Sequence record: MH560358
Direction: 5' to 3' (one strand)
Source of the DNA: Escherichia virus KFS-EC
DNA: 64,000 nt
Shown here in pieces: positions 8,785 through 22,957 of the stretch. The notes beneath the pieces were generated by a model, which had not been told where the DNA came from, ran no database searches, and saw only the letters and a program-made list of their open reading frames with translations. The position numbers were made by a program, and so were the translations under genes. Each line of letters opens with the position of its first letter. The stretch's first letter is position 1.

Positions 8785-10142
8785 CCCTTCTTAAGTTCTT
8801 TAAGATCTTTCTTATATTCCTTCATTGCGGTCGTCTTTGTCCAATACTCATATTCACTATGATGTTTATCGGCATCTTTGACCAGTCGATCATACTCTTC
8901 TTGAGTAACGCTATATAATGGCATAGAAACTAGCTTATCGGCGTATGGACGCAGTTTTTCATGTCCATTTATGGATTGCATTACCTCGGCCTTTTTCTTG
9001 CCCTGTAGCTCGATTTCGCCCTTAATTACGCGATCGATAAATTCGGCTTTAGCCATTGCATAATTGTATGCTTCCAGCGTTTCCGCTTGCATCAATTCAA
9101 TGCGTTTATCGACATACCCTAATCGGATTTCGACGAATCGACGGATCAGATCGCTCGCTTTCTCGAATACTTCTACTAAACCACGTTCGTTAACTACTAC
9201 GATATTCTGGGCTACTAACTGCGTTAGTTTAAAATCCTTCATGATTTGCTCATGTCGAGCGGATTCATCTTCGCTTTTGAAATAATCGCGTTTCAGTGTT
9301 ACTTCAAATCTGAATCCGTCCTTAGAGCAACGGTCATTATACGATACAATCAGATCTTTTTCTTCCAGTGCATCCAGTACCGCTACATATTCTTCACGGT
9401 CGAACTTATAAGGAACTTCTGATATTGTCAGTTTAGTCTTGCCGTTTAGTTCATATGTACCCTCAAGAATCACACCATCGCGATCATCTCGCGGGATAAC
9501 TTTACCTGTGAATTTCGGGAATTGAACACTAGGTTCTTTATCCAGTTTTCCGGCAAGTGCTAGCTCTGTGCATTCAATAAGGCTTTCCAGTGAATGCGGT
9601 AAAATGTCAGTTTTATACCCTGTAGCAATACCACTAATACCATTAGCCAATACCATTGGCACAACTGGCAAGTAGAAAGCTGGCGGGATGTGTTCCAGAT
9701 CTTCGTGCTTAGGTGCGCAATTCATATCTTTATAGATTTTAAAGAAGTTTTCATGCACACGAGCAAAGATATAACGTGCCGCACCTGCTTTCTGGACTAA
9801 ACGCGATCCGAAGTTACCTTGACCGTCAAGCAGTGGAGTATTATTGCTCCATGTATTCGCCATGAGTGATCCGGCTTCTACGGCATTAGTTTCCCCGTGG
9901 TGATAACCCAACTCAGCAACACCAGATCCAATATCTGCCATCTTACGGAATTTCTTACGGTCGCCTTTACTCTTTTGCAAAGCACATTCCATAACAAAGC
10001 GTTGCACTGGTTTAAGTCCGTCTACCAATTGAGGAATCCCGCGTTCCTCGGCAGAATAGATCGCATATTCCTTAGCTTCATTATGTACAATGCTTTCAAG
10101 GCTGCGGTAAGTAACTGATTTATTCATCTTCACCTCATACAC
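8781..10142 (-). CDS. 52: DNA topoisomerase II medium subunit (GyrA-like), T4 gp52 homolog
   Basis: 453 aa (T4 gp52 about 442); GyrA-type N-terminal motifs (LKPVQRFV, active-site region); conserved position near rIIB. Confidence 0.88.
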   Translation of the reverse strand: MYEVKMNKSVTYRSLESIVHNEAKEYAIYSAEERGIPQLVDGLKPVQRFVMECALQKSKGDRKKFRKMADIGSGVAELGYHHGETNAVEAGSLMANTWSNNTPLLDGQGNFGSRLVQKAGAARYIFARVHENFFKIYKDMNCAPKHEDLEHIPPAFYLPVVPMVLANGISGIATGYKTDILPHSLESLIECTELALAGKLDKEPSVQFPKFTGKVIPRDDRDGVILEGTYELNGKTKLTISEVPYKFDREEYVAVLDALEEKDLIVSYNDRCSKDGFRFEVTLKRDYFKSEDESARHEQIMKDFKLTQLVAQNIVVVNERGLVEVFEKASDLIRRFVEIRLGYVDKRIELMQAETLEAYNYAMAKAEFIDRVIKGEIELQGKKKAEVMQSINGHEKLRPYADKLVSMPLYSVTQEEYDRLVKDADKHHSEYEYWTKTTAMKEYKKDLKELKKG

Positions 10143-12377: not shown

Positions 12378-14486
12378 TTAAAATTTAACATTCTTAACCA
12401 GTTTCATAAAGTCTTGTGCGCGTTTGTCATTATGCAGAATACGATACCAGTTATCTACAATATCATACAGTAACGGGCTATTCTCTTTAAACTTCGCACA
12501 AACTGCTTTAATTCGTTCGTTTGCTACCGTGAATTTTTCATCACAAATCTTTTTAGTTTCTTCGTCCATAATCCAACGAGTACGAAGGAGTAACTTGGAA
12601 ACCTCTTTATTATAATGACGACCGTACAGTCTGTCAATAAATTCTGGAACACAGCGTTCTAGTTCATCGTCATGAAACAACATAGTGATCACACCCAGAT
12701 ATTCGCCATACCCCAGATGATTGGTCTTAACCTTCTTAGCCAGACCAGCCAGCTTACCGCAAACAAATTCTAGCGCACATTCCAATTGTTCGTCAACGAG
12801 ATATTTTTGTGTCTCGTTTCGAGTAATAATATACTTTGTTACCCCGAAGTAGTCAAGCGCCGTGTGTAATGTATTTTCACTATGGATCGATTTACGACTA
12901 CGGCTTTCGAATGCATCACCTACGCGGAACATGTGCAAGCCTGATAACTCGCGAATCTCTGCCGCTTTCATGTGATGGCTGGTTTTATGCCAATTGTCAC
13001 CAATCTTTTCCATAATATACACGTTAGGCAGCTTGGGAGTAGCTTCACGTTGTGTACGCTCGGTCTTTTCCGGTTTAACTGCTTTAGCACGCAGATCATC
13101 GGCCTCAGACACTTTAATCACGGTCATTTCAGAATCATCATAATACTGTTTGATGTACTCGAAAGTCTCCATATGTTTTTCGTTGTTCTGACGGAACACC
13201 AGTACCTTTTTATTGATTCCGTATTCCTGGACCATGCCGTTAAGAGTCAGTGCACGCAGTTTCGGTTTATCTGTATCATCAATAAGACACGTAATATCTT
13301 CTTTATGCATCCATACAAAATGCGTAATGTTGTATTGACTGCTAACGAAAGCAGGGCGCAATTTACTGATTGTGTGACGAGTACGATACAGAGTATACAC
13401 CTGACCTTCTACGTCATTTGGCGAATCTTTACCAGCATTCACAAACTTATTATAGATTGCTACCGGATCATCCCACTGACCGATCTTACCCATCTTGCTA
13501 ATAATATTGCGTTGCGTCGATGAATACTCGCTCATAAATTGAGCAAGTTTACGCTCTGTTTTAATGTTGGCGATCTTTTCTTTAACCTTTTCCAACATCA
13601 TTTCATTGATTTCTGCAATGCGTTTTTCGATGTTCGCTTTAGTCTCAATTGACAAGTGAACTTCTTCACGCGATGGCATAAGGTCCAGATCACCCAACTC
13701 AAAATTAATGTAAATGGTCTGGTGCTGGCGGTTTACAGCTTCTAACCATGTTCCGCGAACATATTCATACGGGATCGGATACTGGATCTTACCCATGATT
13801 GCATATACTACATAGGAATCGTTATCACGCCCATTACAAACATAATAATTATCAAAGCTAGGGAAATAATTAATTTCGATTGCATTGATATTAGGTTTGT
13901 GTTCCCCAAAATGACGCAGTACAAATTGCGCTTCTCGATGCCATGTCTGAATGTCTTTTTCTTTCACCGGAATAGTGATTTTCAGACCATTGTCTTCATA
14001 GGTCGGTTCGTCGAAAATCTGCACCATTTTCGGCATCGAGTTTTGCACAAATGCCGTAAAGCCATAAGCGCGACCATTGTAATAGTTTACGATTGTAAAG
14101 GTGTCGGTATAGCTATAAGCAGATTTCGCACCTAAACCAAAAGATCCGATATAATCATTAGTCTGGTCTTTTGTTGATTCAAAGTAAACCGTAAACAGTT
14201 GTTCTAATTCTTTCTTAGACGGAATACCAGTACCATAATCACGCACAGAAAAATACGGTTCGATTGCAGTCGGTAAATGAATATCAAACGGACGATCTAA
14301 GGTTCCGGCTTCTTTGTGAGTGTCGGTAGCATTGCACGAATACTCACGGACGCAAGCACGCTCACAATATTGATAAGTGTTCTTAGAAAGCACCATAAAA
14401 GCCTTGCTACTTGCTTTCAGTGAAAAATCAACCGCACCGCTCAAGTCACTGCCAAATACTTCTTCATTATCAATATGCATTTTCAT
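12378..14486 (-). CDS. rIIA: rIIA protein (GHKL-type ATPase domain)
   Basis: 702 aa (T4 725); N-terminal histidine-kinase-like ATPase motifs (DYGTGIP, GSFGLGAKSAY); adjacent to rIIB in T4 order; RBS GAGGA. Confidence 0.92.
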   Translation of the reverse strand: MKMHIDNEEVFGSDLSGAVDFSLKASSKAFMVLSKNTYQYCERACVREYSCNATDTHKEAGTLDRPFDIHLPTAIEPYFSVRDYGTGIPSKKELEQLFTVYFESTKDQTNDYIGSFGLGAKSAYSYTDTFTIVNYYNGRAYGFTAFVQNSMPKMVQIFDEPTYEDNGLKITIPVKEKDIQTWHREAQFVLRHFGEHKPNINAIEINYFPSFDNYYVCNGRDNDSYVVYAIMGKIQYPIPYEYVRGTWLEAVNRQHQTIYINFELGDLDLMPSREEVHLSIETKANIEKRIAEINEMMLEKVKEKIANIKTERKLAQFMSEYSSTQRNIISKMGKIGQWDDPVAIYNKFVNAGKDSPNDVEGQVYTLYRTRHTISKLRPAFVSSQYNITHFVWMHKEDITCLIDDTDKPKLRALTLNGMVQEYGINKKVLVFRQNNEKHMETFEYIKQYYDDSEMTVIKVSEADDLRAKAVKPEKTERTQREATPKLPNVYIMEKIGDNWHKTSHHMKAAEIRELSGLHMFRVGDAFESRSRKSIHSENTLHTALDYFGVTKYIITRNETQKYLVDEQLECALEFVCGKLAGLAKKVKTNHLGYGEYLGVITMLFHDDELERCVPEFIDRLYGRHYNKEVSKLLLRTRWIMDEETKKICDEKFTVANERIKAVCAKFKENSPLLYDIVDNWYRILHNDKRAQDFMKLVKNVKF

Positions 14487-15174: not shown

Positions 15175-15209
15175 GGGGACATTATGATATATCCCCGATC
15201 CAGTGTCAA
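15175..15209 (-). promoter_or_regulatory. early sigma70-type promoter with stem-loop over -10 (PeSL-like)
   Basis: minus strand TTGACA-17-CATAAT; GGGGA...TCCCC inverted repeat spans the -10. Confidence 0.5.
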
Positions 15210-20161: not shown

Positions 20162-20475
20162 TATCCTAAAATCCTCACCTTGCGAACACAGATAGTATTG
20201 AGTTCTCGCCGTACCCGTTCTTTTTCATATTCAGGAATTTTATATTCGATACCATCCCGAACAATTTCAGAAGACCGGATTATGCCAAATTTTCGTTTAG
20301 GTACAACCTTGTATTTCGGTTCACCCGCCAATAGACTCTCACAATAATCTATCTGATCACACATTGACGCTAACGCAGCATCATGTGTTTCGCAAGTTAG
20401 GACGCGACCCTTCGCGTCCACTGAGTATTGAAAGAATCCGTCTTTATCACGATAACATATAGCAAATACATGCAT
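20161..20475 (-). CDS. hypothetical protein
   Basis: 104-aa ORF, start/stop overlaps with neighbours. Confidence 0.5.
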   Translation of the reverse strand: MHVFAICYRDKDGFFQYSVDAKGRVLTCETHDAALASMCDQIDYCESLLAGEPKYKVVPKRKFGIIRSSEIVRDGIEYKIPEYEKERVRRELNTICVRKVRILG

Positions 20476-21230
20476 TATAAACCTACCTTCGCTTTCATCA
20501 ATTCAATCCACGACGCATCAATCGGAAGCCCGTATTTCACGCGTTCTTTTTGTGCTGGCGTTAAGTTCTCATACTTAGAAAGAGATTCAATCAAAACGCT
20601 GGTATATTTTAGCACGATTTCGGTATTGTTTGCAATAGCCTTAAGTTTTTCTTCTTTCTTGTTGATTTCGCTAAGGGCTTGCTTGAGATCTGCAATTTTC
20701 TGATAACGTTCTTCCATACGGAAGAGAGTATTTTTAATCGCTCGCTCGGCTGCCTCTGCTTTCTCCGGTTCGTTGTGCTTTTTGTGGCGCTCGATTGCTA
20801 ATTTCTTTTCTTCGATTGCTATTTCCTGATTTTTGATGCGATTCTCGTTAAGTTCGATCCACTCGATGTACTTCGCACGTAGGGTAATTTCATCATCAGA
20901 AAGTTTACCGTTAGTTCCTAGTTCCTGGATCTCTTTAAGAGATTCGATAGTGTGATTGCCACGGAAAGAATTGTATTTCCGTTTAACCGGAATTACATTG
21001 CCATCAACATATCCTAGATTGCAATCAATGCGCTCTAAGGAGAGTCCATCATCACCTTCACCGAACGCTTCACCTGAATATGCGCAATGAGTCTGACGGT
21101 AAATGTTACGCACAGTGACTAAGCTCATAGAGAAGTCTTTGTTGCGACGTGAAGCGCCAGTCATGATAGAGTTCAGACGGAAAACAACCAGCGCCAATTC
21201 TTCGTTAGATTTAAAAGCAAACAGTTTCAT
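20475..21230 (-). CDS. hypothetical protein with degenerate HNH-like N-terminal motif and C-terminal coiled coil (occupies the srd-like position)
   Basis: 251 aa; HCAYSGEAF..DGLSLERID..GYVDGNVIPV resembles an HNH core lacking the catalytic His; Lys/Glu-rich C-terminal half. Confidence 0.5.
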   Translation of the reverse strand: MKLFAFKSNEELALVVFRLNSIMTGASRRNKDFSMSLVTVRNIYRQTHCAYSGEAFGEGDDGLSLERIDCNLGYVDGNVIPVKRKYNSFRGNHTIESLKEIQELGTNGKLSDDEITLRAKYIEWIELNENRIKNQEIAIEEKKLAIERHKKHNEPEKAEAAERAIKNTLFRMEERYQKIADLKQALSEINKKEEKLKAIANNTEIVLKYTSVLIESLSKYENLTPAQKERVKYGLPIDASWIELMKAKVGL

Positions 21231-21258: not shown

Positions 21259-21289
21259 TATTATTGTCTATCTGGTTTGTGCTGTCAAC
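21259..21289 (-). promoter_or_regulatory. early sigma70-type promoter
   Basis: minus strand TTGACA-18-ATAATA, followed by conserved leader and AAGGAGAATC RBS of 20475..21230. Confidence 0.5.
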
Positions 21290-21291
21290 AC

Positions 21292-21795
21292 TTAAATTAA
21301 AGAAAATTTGTAAATCTCTATCAGATCGCCATTACACGCGTAAACTTCCTCGATCTCATCAAGGATCATGGTCGTCCCTGTCTTGTATATGCACTCGCGC
21401 TCATCTGCCAACATAGCATACAAAGACAGTCGAGTAGTTGGATTGTCATACTCTTTAGACACCACTCGGTCAATAGCATGTTCGTAATAATTCATGCAAG
21501 GCTTGGTAGGTTTTATTGCAATAATCTTTCCTGTTGCATAAACATCGGTTGCAAAGTCCTCTGCTGTTGATTGCAGTGGCGTAAAGCTCATAGGACGCTC
21601 TACAACGAAAGAATCACCCACAATTAAGGTATCCAGCTTACGGCCTTCTCTTTTGCTCACACCGCGATACAAGGCTTCATGATGCACTAACCGCTCAGTC
21701 TTTTCGATCAATCCATTAAGGATCGACATATCGATATTTTCTTTAGAGTTCATCACTTCATCAATGATGTTAAGTTCTTCTGGTGTAAATTGCAT
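21292..21795 (-). CDS. ADP-ribosyltransferase, ModA/ModB-like (R-S-E class)
   Basis: 167 aa; motifs in order YRG, STAED (S-T-S-like) and ERE; located between dda and gene 56 as modA/modB in T4. Confidence 0.55.
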   Translation of the reverse strand: MQFTPEELNIIDEVMNSKENIDMSILNGLIEKTERLVHHEALYRGVSKREGRKLDTLIVGDSFVVERPMSFTPLQSTAEDFATDVYATGKIIAIKPTKPCMNYYEHAIDRVVSKEYDNPTTRLSLYAMLADERECIYKTGTTMILDEIEEVYACNGDLIEIYKFSLI

Positions 21796-21802
21796 AATAA
21801 AA

Positions 21803-21857
21803 AAGCCTCCAATCTTTCGACGGGAGGCATAATAAAACCATTATAGAGTAGTGTCAA
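21803..21857 (-). promoter_or_regulatory. early promoter followed by leader hairpin that includes the RBS of the ModA-like gene
   Basis: minus strand TTGACA (21852..21857)-17-TATTAT (21829..21834), then GCCUCC-12 nt-GGAGGC hairpin (21805..21828) and UUUUUUAUU immediately before the ATG at 21795. Confidence 0.45.
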
Positions 21858-21864
21858 CTAATTT

Positions 21865-22383
21865 TTAGTAGCCGCGTTCTTGACGGGCGAAGTTTTCAGC
21901 ATTTTTCAGATAGTACAGCTTGAAGATATCCTTAGCGGTTAAACCTAAGCCCAGCATTTTAATCAGCACAAAATGCCAGATATCGATCAATTCCATCGAA
22001 ATTTCGGTTTTATCGTCATCTGACAGGTCAGCAAATTTACGCGATCGTGCTTCGCCGTGGTTTTTCTTCCACACTTTAGTAATTGCGCTTGCATCTTTGC
22101 CATTTGACATGCCACCCAGGGCAACATAAAGTTCTCGTGTCTCGTCGTCGATTGCGTCATCCCACAACTTCATCCAGTCAAGGATTTCTCCACAAGTTTC
22201 CAGCTTATCAGGATGCGGCACCCACTCAAATTTATCAGCTAGTGCGACCTGTAATCCTTTTTGCATATCTAACATTACTTGCAGCGGATCTTTGCCGCTA
22301 GTGATTGCCTCGGAATACGCAATACCAGCTTTAGACATAGTTTCATCATTAACAAGACCAGCACAAGAATTAAATTCACTCAT
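21865..22383 (-). CDS. 56: dCTP pyrophosphatase (MazG-like), gp56 homolog
   Basis: 172 aa from ATG 22383 (T4 gp56 171 aa); MazG-type EExxE motifs (ELIDIWHF); longer track ORF starts upstream. Confidence 0.8.
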   Translation of the reverse strand: MSEFNSCAGLVNDETMSKAGIAYSEAITSGKDPLQVMLDMQKGLQVALADKFEWVPHPDKLETCGEILDWMKLWDDAIDDETRELYVALGGMSNGKDASAITKVWKKNHGEARSRKFADLSDDDKTEISMELIDIWHFVLIKMLGLGLTAKDIFKLYYLKNAENFARQERGY

Positions 22384-22393
22384 AATAAACCTC

Positions 22394-22957
22394 TCAAATA
22401 ACATTAAACACTGCAAATTCACCGTGATACTTATACGCATAGTCATTATATACTATTGCGGCGTCTATTTCTAGGTCAAATTGTCCTATATAGACTTTAT
22501 TTCCTTCATTGTCCCTTATCTGGGCGACCCATTTACCCGAACGACTATTATAATGCACTCCTTTAAAATTGCTAGTTTTAGTTTGGTTATTTCTTCTCAT
22601 ATTTTGGGTATTCTGTTTTTGTGTCGCCTCTCTTAAGTTTGGAGGGTCGTTGTTTTCTGGATTCCCGTCAATATGGTCAATGACAGGTGGGCAATACCCA
22701 TGCTCTAAGAAGAATACTATTCTATGCACAAGCTCAAAATATTGTTTTCCTTCAAAAGAAAACGAGACTTTTAGGTGTCCGGCTGTGACTTTAGATACCT
22801 TTACTATATCACCAACCTTATAAAACTGGCCTTCTTTCGTCGTTCGGCTTGCTTTGCTGTTTGTTTTATGAATCAATATACCACTTTCGTGTCTATATCT
22901 TCGACGTATTTCATCCTTTAGTTCATCGCTCCATTCTTTGGCTTTCCTTACCCTCAC
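22394..22957 (-). mobile_element. free-standing homing endonuclease gene, HNH nuclease plus AP2 DNA-binding domain
   Basis: 187 aa; HNH core IDHIDGNPENNDPPNLREATQKQN; AP2-like FKGVHYNSRSGKWVAQI...YIGQF; GTG start with GAGGG RBS; inserted between genes 56 and 61. Confidence 0.75.

Follow-up and report, generated by a model that had tools for sequence, protein, structure and literature searches.

A promoter-embedded hairpin before modB in an RB49-like phage: a probable PeSL-type cassette predicted to separate modB expression from upstream transcription

RB49-like phages are known to carry PeSL (promoter-early stem-loop) cassettes, with ~50 reported per RB49 or phi1 genome (Arbiol et al. 2010, PMC2839356; see also Comeau et al. 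2014, PMC4122927). The stem-loop of these cassettes was assigned a role as a terminator or attenuator of transcription arriving from upstream, with activity shown for one of them, PeSL211/210, and a further role in recombination and modular shuffling was also proposed (PMC2839356). At the modB locus of RB49, Nolan et al. 2006 listed an early promoter, Pe:9496 (9446..9496), which overlaps a terminator at 9430..9453, 'modB<--56' (10 bp, TransTerm confidence 100; PMC1524935 and its supplement). In T4, the long RNAs of e, soc, 49, and I-TevI hide the Shine-Dalgarno (SD) sequence and/or AUG, and an internal promoter situated in the DNA of the 5' strand gives rise to short RNAs that are translated (Uzan & Miller 2010, PMC3014915). 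ModA and ModB have been reported as toxic or lethal on expression in E. coli (PMC2988021, PMC3014915), and ModB is under active study as an enzyme that joins RNA chains to host proteins (PMC10468400). The element described here belongs to these known kinds, namely PeSL cassettes, intrinsic terminators, and T4-style promoter-internal locks on the ribosome-binding site (RBS). The overlap of the modB terminator and promoter is already on record for RB49 (Nolan 2006), and there is little new in it for the window analyzed here.

That window, a 64,000-nt stretch of Escherichia virus KFS-EC (MH560358), comes from a Krischvirus, i.e., an RB49-like T4-type coliphage. The locus is syntenic with RB49, and the TB34, SAP, and AV108 phages share 98.7% identity with it across the 1.3 kb surrounding the cassette. 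On the minus strand, the gene order is primase 61, an HNH-AP2 homing endonuclease, dCTPase 56, a 167-a.a ModB-like gene, srd, a Y01A-family gene, and dda. Gene 56 is the upstream source of transcripts entering the cassette, and the srd promoter cassette forms the far-side boundary of the modB module (Table 1). The endonuclease gene (22394-22957, minus strand), which has HNH and AP2 domains and separates primase gene 61 from gene 56, also occurs in TB34 and G2494 but not in RB49 or Makalu003, while JSE and G37-3 carry a different endonuclease gene, in the opposite orientation, between gene 56 and the modB promoter. The Srd homologue (20475-21230, minus strand) matched PHROG 1400 (4e-73), and its residues 24-167 additionally matched PHROG families annotated as HNH endonuclease (2e-12), endonuclease (3e-11), and endonuclease VII (3e-5), which hints at a nuclease-like fold in this homologue of the 'anti-sigma decoy'.

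The 167-a.a protein is an ADP-ribosyltransferase of the ModA/ModB type, as the first-pass annotation had proposed. It matched PHROG 832 'RNA polymerase ADP-ribosylase' (1e-20), and in an alignment with T4 ModA and ModB the R, S, and ExE catalytic positions are kept, with R73, G74, S99, E171, and E173 (T4 ModB numbering) invariant. The mod genes of other genera show ~29% identity to it (tblastn), and searches of Pfam and NCBIfam with the transferase returned no match. The gene is annotated as modB in Krischvirus records, and the Krischvirus ModB proteins in GenBank (n = 57) are all 99-100% identical.

Between the stop codon of gene 56 and the start codon of modB lies a compact arrangement of promoter, hairpin, and U-tract (Table 1). 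The full hairpin reads GCCUCC-C-GUC-GAAA-GAU-U-GGAGGC, followed by U6AUU, and was confirmed on the minus strand before the modB ATG with a minimum free energy (MFE) of -15.0 kcal/mol, an ensemble frequency of 0.90-0.95, and a z-score of -3.9 to -4.1; 200 dinucleotide shuffles yielded no structure as stable. The loop had been described as 12 nt long, and 12 nt do separate the two arms; they do not form a plain loop, folding instead into a mismatch and three further pairs (G.U, U-A, and C-G) closed by a GAAA tetraloop. The GGAGG of the 3' arm was likewise correctly singled out as the sole SD of modB, being the only purine-rich motif 5' of the ATG, and in the fold all five of its bases are paired and the AUG is unpaired. 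Among the 93 window genes with a recognizable SD, modB is alone in having every base of that SD paired within a structure whose free energy is -14 kcal/mol or below. An Rfam search of the cassette region returned no match.

Table 1. Positions of the cassette features, neighboring genes, and related hairpins (window coordinates unless another locus is named)
Feature	Position	Strand	Basis and remarks
Gene 56 (dCTPase/dUTPase)	21865..22383	-	Pfam dUTPase_2, PHROG 173; dCTPase in TB34 and RB49 records
gp56 stop	21865-21867	-	Sequence; then AAAATTAG before the -35
-35 hexamer TTGACA	21852..21857	-	Promoter scan; invariant in Krischvirus (n = 10); minus_35_signal in GEC-3S
-10 hexamer TATTAT	21829..21834	-	Promoter scan; GEC-3S annotation; within RB49 model Pe:9496; invariant in Krischvirus (n = 10)
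GCCTCC, hairpin 5' arm and promoter discriminator (-6 to -1)	21823..21828	-	Sequence, fold, sister-promoter pattern
Predicted transcription start, C21822 or G21821	21821..21822	-	Sigma-70 geometry, sister promoters, RB49 model end (RB49 9446)
Hairpin inner part CGTCGAAAGATT	21811..21822	-	C.U mismatch, GUC/GAU (three pairs), GAAA tetraloop
GGAGGC, hairpin 3' arm	21805..21810	-	GGAGG (21806-21810) is the sole modB SD
U-tract T6 then ATT, terminator tail and spacer to AUG	21796..21804	-	T6 at 21799-21804
modB ATG	21793-21795	-	Sequence
modB-like ADP-ribosyltransferase gene, 167 a.a	21292..21795	-	PHROG match, alignment, tblastn
srd promoter cassette TTGACA-17-AATAAT	21260..21288	-	Promoter scan; corresponds to RB49 Pe:8927
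Shared short-leader cassettes	21259-21231, 8107-8080, 57068-57040, 7605-7580, 59476-59450	-	
First-mod-gene hairpin, T4	13125-13166		L016 3626-3667
First-mod-gene hairpins, other loci	L017 ~856, L018 ~811, L019 ~166, L020 ~796, L021 ~300		
First-mod-gene hairpins, further loci	L022 ~255, L023 ~288, L024 ~213, L025 ~255		

The early promoter noted at first reading was also recovered, as a sigma-70-type TTGACA-17-TATTAT that scores 11/12 with a 17-nt spacer in the promoter scan, and the GEC-3S annotators had independently picked the same two hexamers. Its counterpart in RB49 has a modest HMM score (11.3 vs. 28.9 for the neighboring srd promoter). What was not supported is the placement of the hairpin in the leader of this promoter's own transcript. 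The -10 hexamer ends at 21829 and the hairpin 5' arm begins at 21828, i.e., the stem starts 1 nt past the -10, so the 5' arm constitutes the promoter discriminator. Transcription by E. coli RNA polymerase begins 6, 7, 8, or 9 bp past the -10 in 8, 55, 29, and 7% of cases, respectively; the enzyme favors a purine following a pyrimidine, and is shifted downstream by pyrimidine-rich discriminators (Yu et al. 2017, PMC5730371). Since positions 6-9 past the modB -10 are C, C, G, and U, the start is expected under this preference at G21821 or C21822.

The sister promoters of the window follow the same pattern. Of 24 sigma-70-type promoter-plus-ORF cassettes on the minus strand, 14 read '-10, N6 ending in C, then AT', placing an A at position 7 after a C-rich discriminator, as can be seen by comparing TATTAT gcctcc CG tcgaaag (modB) with CATAAT gtcccc AT cgaaaac (the sister cassette at 15209). 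Because the sister promoters share it, the modB 5' arm can be read as the C-rich discriminator typical of this promoter family. Similarly, the RB49 promoter model has its 3' end close to the predicted start, within the terminator hairpin. When folded, RNAs starting at 21823, 21822, or 21821 reach just -1.1 to -2.8 kcal/mol, with the SD unpaired, and the predicted leader of the promoter's own transcript is 26-27 nt long. From this geometry, we infer that the own-promoter RNA most likely starts inside the hairpin, at one of the two predicted positions, and lacks the 5' arm. A literature search found no published 5'- or 3'-end mapping (including Term-seq and 3'-RACE) for any Krischvirus.

For RNA arriving from upstream, the only RNA predicted to contain both hairpin arms, the element has the look of an intrinsic terminator, as had been suspected. 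The hairpin lies 36 nt past the upstream same-strand stop codon; its stem of 6 + 3 pairs is rich in G+C and capped by a GNRA tetraloop, and U6 follows it. In addition to the TransTerm prediction in RB49, two GenBank records label it 'terminator', and the Makalu003 record places the RBS inside the annotated terminator. The built-in terminator scan missed the site due to its loop limit of 3-8 nt, and an RNAfold-based scan recovers it. Nine sites in the window have a T5 run behind a hairpin of -14 kcal/mol or below, compared to 0.95 +/- 0.9 in 20 dinucleotide shuffles, an approximately nine-fold enrichment. By these comparisons, the modB hairpin did not arise as a random match. On upstream-derived RNA, the hairpin and U-tract are thus predicted to act as an intrinsic terminator. 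The TB34 record (OX001802.1 95994-96026; L001 2173-2205) annotates the terminator on the strand opposite the genes, where no T-tract follows the stem, and this looks like an annotation slip.

Taken together, we consider it probable that the element is a composite PeSL-type promoter/terminator cassette that isolates modB expression from upstream transcription. Polymerases arriving from gene 56 would transcribe the whole hairpin and U6, and most would terminate at ~21797-21803; in any RNA escaping termination, the modB SD would be kept locked in the -15 kcal/mol stem. A polymerase recruited at TTGACA/TATTAT would instead start just past the 5' arm, and because the resulting 26-27-nt leader cannot form the hairpin, this RNA would neither terminate nor hide its SD, and modB would be translated. 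Synthesis of the ADP-ribosyltransferase would then depend on its own immediate-early promoter alone, with no contribution from later long RNAs crossing the region. The attenuation or translational gating suggested in the first-pass annotation would hence survive for gp56-derived RNA, on which we infer both the extent of termination and the block to translation from the fold, and not for the promoter's own transcript; as the gating applies to gp56 read-through RNA, it is not self-attenuation. Besides the modest promoter score in RB49 and the weak covariation described below, some points count against this explanation: a C-rich discriminator and a G-rich SD are naturally complementary, such that part of the pairing could be incidental, and efficient termination would leave the SD lock adding little in this phage.

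The cassette shares most of its features with described PeSLs. It has a sigma-70 consensus early promoter with a spacer within the 16-18 bp used to define them, an A/T-rich stretch that includes the stop codon of the upstream gene (...GGCTAC TAA AAATTAG TTGACA), a stable stem-loop over the promoter region, which fits the published subclass with a stem-loop downstream of the -10, and the SD and ATG of the downstream gene at its 3' end (GGAGG-N10-ATG), although the SD is atypically inside the stem. It also belongs to a repeated family, with more than 20 sister cassettes in the window, many of which have stem-loops between or over the hexamers, and sits at boundaries of insertion, deletion, or replacement (gp56 and modB allele swaps and endonuclease insertions). 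It differs from PeSLs in the order of its arms, the C-rich one leading, and in using the SD of its own gene as the 3' arm, whereas most sister cassettes have their SD (AAGGAGAATCAAA) well downstream of the stem-loop and unpaired, and in that it precedes a conserved host-takeover gene rather than an ORFan.

Three other window cassettes have a stem-loop downstream of the -10, at 34297-34230, 29542, and 17495, all on the minus strand. The stem of the 34297 cassette (GGGGAGUG-UAAA-UACUCCCC) begins at position 7 past TATAAT and, unlike that of modB, could form the extreme 5' end of the RNA made from its own promoter, where it might act as a 5' stabilizer. In the 29542 cassette, no U-tract follows the stem. 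A short leader of almost the same sequence, A-U-A/C-C-A-A-(A)-C...AAGGAGAAUCAAA-AUG, recurs in many minus-strand cassettes of the window (Table 1); by its sequence, this appears to be a promoter-plus-5'UTR module repeated before unrelated genes.

Compared to an ordinary Rho-independent terminator, which the element resembles in having a G+C-rich hairpin followed by a U-tract on the strand of the upstream gene, the modB hairpin differs in overlapping the discriminator and SD of the next gene, with a release site at ~+20 to +25 from the start of that gene's promoter. Leader attenuators and riboswitches likewise place a terminator-shaped hairpin between promoter and start codon, here with the SD in the stem, but the modB 5' arm is upstream of the predicted start, and there is no alternative fold, leader peptide, or ligand- or protein-binding fold. 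The logic resembles that of the T4 e, soc, 49, and I-TevI genes: the modB SD is paired in a stable helix on long transcripts, and promoter geometry, sister promoters, and the RB49 model predict a modB start past the hairpin 5' arm. In these T4 genes, the internal promoter is of the late type (TATAAATA), so that their lock postpones expression to late infection. No late promoter of this type was found in the gp56-modB intergenic region, in which the promoter is of the early sigma-70 type; in Krischvirus and the other genera described below, the internal promoter of modB is early, and expression would be limited by the lock to the immediate-early phase. The Krischvirus version further differs from the T4 genes in adding a U-tract, and should also terminate.

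At least eight further T4-like genera were seen to have a comparable hairpin at their first mod gene, pairing the -10/discriminator region with the SD/AUG, with different sequences and no U-tract. The set comprised T4, JS98 (Dhakavirus), Gelderlandvirus, Mosigvirus, Kanagawavirus, Marfavirus, two Karamvirus phages, and Klebsiella phage K65 (Table 1). Fold energies of the long form, taken over the minimal -10-to-AUG segment, range from -15 to -24 kcal/mol (z -3.5 to -7.4), with K65 as the exception: its segment gives -5.2 kcal/mol (z -0.3), and only a wider window brings it to -15.3. The RNAs expected from the promoters themselves (start 7 nt past the -10) fold at 0 to -3 kcal/mol. In T4, the fold energy of TATGAT agcttctgaagtatac GGAGG ctatc ATG is -18 to -21 kcal/mol (z -4.8 to -5.7); in its helix, AUGAUAGCUUCUG (the last five -10 bases and the discriminator) pairs with CGGAGGCUAUCAU, which runs from the SD to the first two bases (AU) of the start codon.

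Within those loci, the second mod gene, srd, and most other neighbors reach -3 to -11 kcal/mol, and the second mod gene and srd lack the hairpin; in the Kanagawavirus locus, two neighboring genes (-14.6 and -16.5) come near its mod gene (-16.9). Across the first 50 kb of T4, the modB start region ranks second of 87 (-18.0, median -5.0), alongside gene 49 (-16.3) and I-TevII (-15.8), for which translational locks have been documented or predicted, and among the 15 genes that have an early promoter close by, its start-region fold is the strongest. An RNAalifold analysis of eight genera found compensatory changes in two of 12 consensus pairs and a covariation term of ~0, with JS98 and Marfavirus mis-registered by MAFFT, and both arms are also constrained by the -10, SD, and AUG. 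Given this covariation of ~0, the case across genera is built on recurrence and fold energy.

A bearing on the T4 start site comes from a published modA-modB qPCR primer, whose 3' end falls exactly at G13149, and from the same source's report that the modA-modB transcript lacks an NAD cap, in keeping with a G start (bioRxiv 10.1101/2024.04.04.588121). G13149 is position 8 past TATGAT, beyond the 5' strand of the hairpin. That the primer ends at the predicted +1 G is suggestive of the start, although the primer would also work on a longer RNA. Outside Krischvirus, where the U-tract is lacking, the hairpin would be a pure translational lock. It is conceivable that a promoter-embedded anti-SD hairpin is a conserved control of modB across Straboviridae, leaving none but own-promoter RNA translatable and confining a toxic ADP-ribosyl/RNAylating transferase to the first minutes of infection, and that the Krischvirus version evolved into a terminator; we advance this tentatively, as a finely balanced proposal that we stop short of favoring. 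We found no published account of the promoter/SD hairpin of the first mod gene in a search that stopped short of the older T4 and RB49 papers, and we claim no priority.

Two further T4 genes stood out in the control scan (L028). The start of gene 39.1 (5595) has the strongest start-region hairpin of that scan (-18.2 kcal/mol, 14/16 paired), and the start of dmd (20553), just downstream of an early promoter, is 15/16 paired at -11.9 kcal/mol; both may be further cases of the same lock. In the phiC120 phage (L026 703-837), a 135-nt ORF keeps the full Mosigvirus mod1 promoter, hairpin, and first codons, and is apparently, judging from its sequence, a truncated first mod gene with a surviving control region.

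Across 10 Krischvirus sequences, the -35, the -10, and both hairpin arms are invariant, and sequences differ only in front of the -35, within the 5' portion of the spacer, at the mismatched base, and in the number of Ts in the T-tract (5-7). The sole variant in the stem region is a U21811 to C change at the mismatch in L006, an IMG/VR contig. With both arms invariant in all sequences, no covariation within Krischvirus could be assessed, and a scan of metagenome and viral contigs with the modB 5' pattern recovered only four loci and no new variants. In recombination, too, the cassette resembles a PeSL. Compared to RB49, the intergenic region is 100% identical, primase 61 98.8%, and modB 99%, whereas gp56 is only 72% identical (DNA); this 72% allele (21911-22383, minus strand) ends at ~21911, ~45 nt before the gp56 stop, and identity is 99-100% onward through modB. 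Gene 56 looks, from this sequence pattern, like a clean single-gene replacement. L006 (IMGVR_UViG_3300005711_000037, 801-1304) carries a divergent modB allele (71% DNA and 75% protein identity; window ~21750-21300) flanked by intergenic promoter cassettes 94-97% identical to those of the window. Despite allele swaps on either side, the 160 nt around the cassette are 94-100% identical.

Such mosaicism could point to a role of the cassette in DNA, as a recombination linker in PeSL-mediated modular shuffling, with the stem-loop as a target or by-product. Mosaic boundaries do flank the cassette (gp56 to ~21911 and the L006 modB allele), homing-endonuclease genes have been inserted 3 nt upstream of the modB -35 in JSE and G37-3, and a role of this kind is the one proposed by Arbiol et al. 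(PMC2839356). It is nonetheless compatible with functions in RNA, and leaves unexplained both the use of the SD as a hairpin arm and the pairing of promoter and SD by unrelated sequences in other genera; as the main explanation we find it quite improbable. Somewhat better placed, though still unlikely, is the view that the hairpin is simply the terminator of the gene-61/56 unit, overlapping the next promoter by chance, with the SD as 3' arm an incidental economy of sequence under no selection for a role in translation. The TransTerm prediction, the annotated terminators, and the many comparable terminators in the window fit this view, and a C-rich discriminator is a family trait, so complementarity to GGAGG comes easily. 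It sits poorly with an SD fully paired in a strong stem at only one of the 93 window genes, with the promoter-SD/AUG hairpin found without a U-tract at the homologous position in the other genera checked, and with a T4 modB hairpin as strong as the locks of gene 49 and I-TevII.

The remaining readings both need the 5' arm in the promoter's own transcript. In the one nearest to the first-pass annotation, the hairpin of the own-transcript leader attenuates ~25 nt from the start and/or masks the SD of a toxic enzyme. The hairpin, U-tract, and SD overlap are real, the toxicity or lethality reported for ModA and ModB in E. coli (PMC2988021, PMC3014915) would fit, and a perfect TATAAT in the spacer (21845-21840) would bring the start to near A21833, upstream of the hairpin. 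We rejected this alternative -10, which has a -35 match of only 3/6 and is lost in FL20 (TATCAT) and JSE, whereas TTGACA-17-TATTAT is invariant. With TATTAT, a start at 21828 or higher would lie 0-1 bp past the hexamer, outside the 6-9 bp range. Moreover, one fold dominates the cassette RNA (0.90-0.95 of the ensemble) and no alternative (antiterminator) fold was found, Rfam gave no match, there is no leader peptide, and a constitutive terminator 25 nt into the transcript would simply kill the promoter, making this reading very improbable. Lastly, 5' stem-loops stabilize some mRNAs, and the hairpin could in principle protect the 5' terminus of the modB mRNA against RNase E or RegB. The modB SD does contain GGAG, the RegB target motif (PMC3014915); however, the start predicted from promoter geometry leaves the 5' arm out of the transcript, and the hairpin would block the transcript's own translation. 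This protective role was rejected on the promoter geometry and is, to our mind, barely credible.

For this window, the promoter/terminator cassette that we prefer turns an apparent attenuator into one already catalogued. The conserved association of a lock with modB is a modest, testable addition. If true, such a lock would explain the restriction of the enzyme to a short time window, and mutation of the 5' arm would offer a simple handle on the effects of ModB made later; it would also extend the 'promoter inside hairpin' principle of T4 from late to early promoters.
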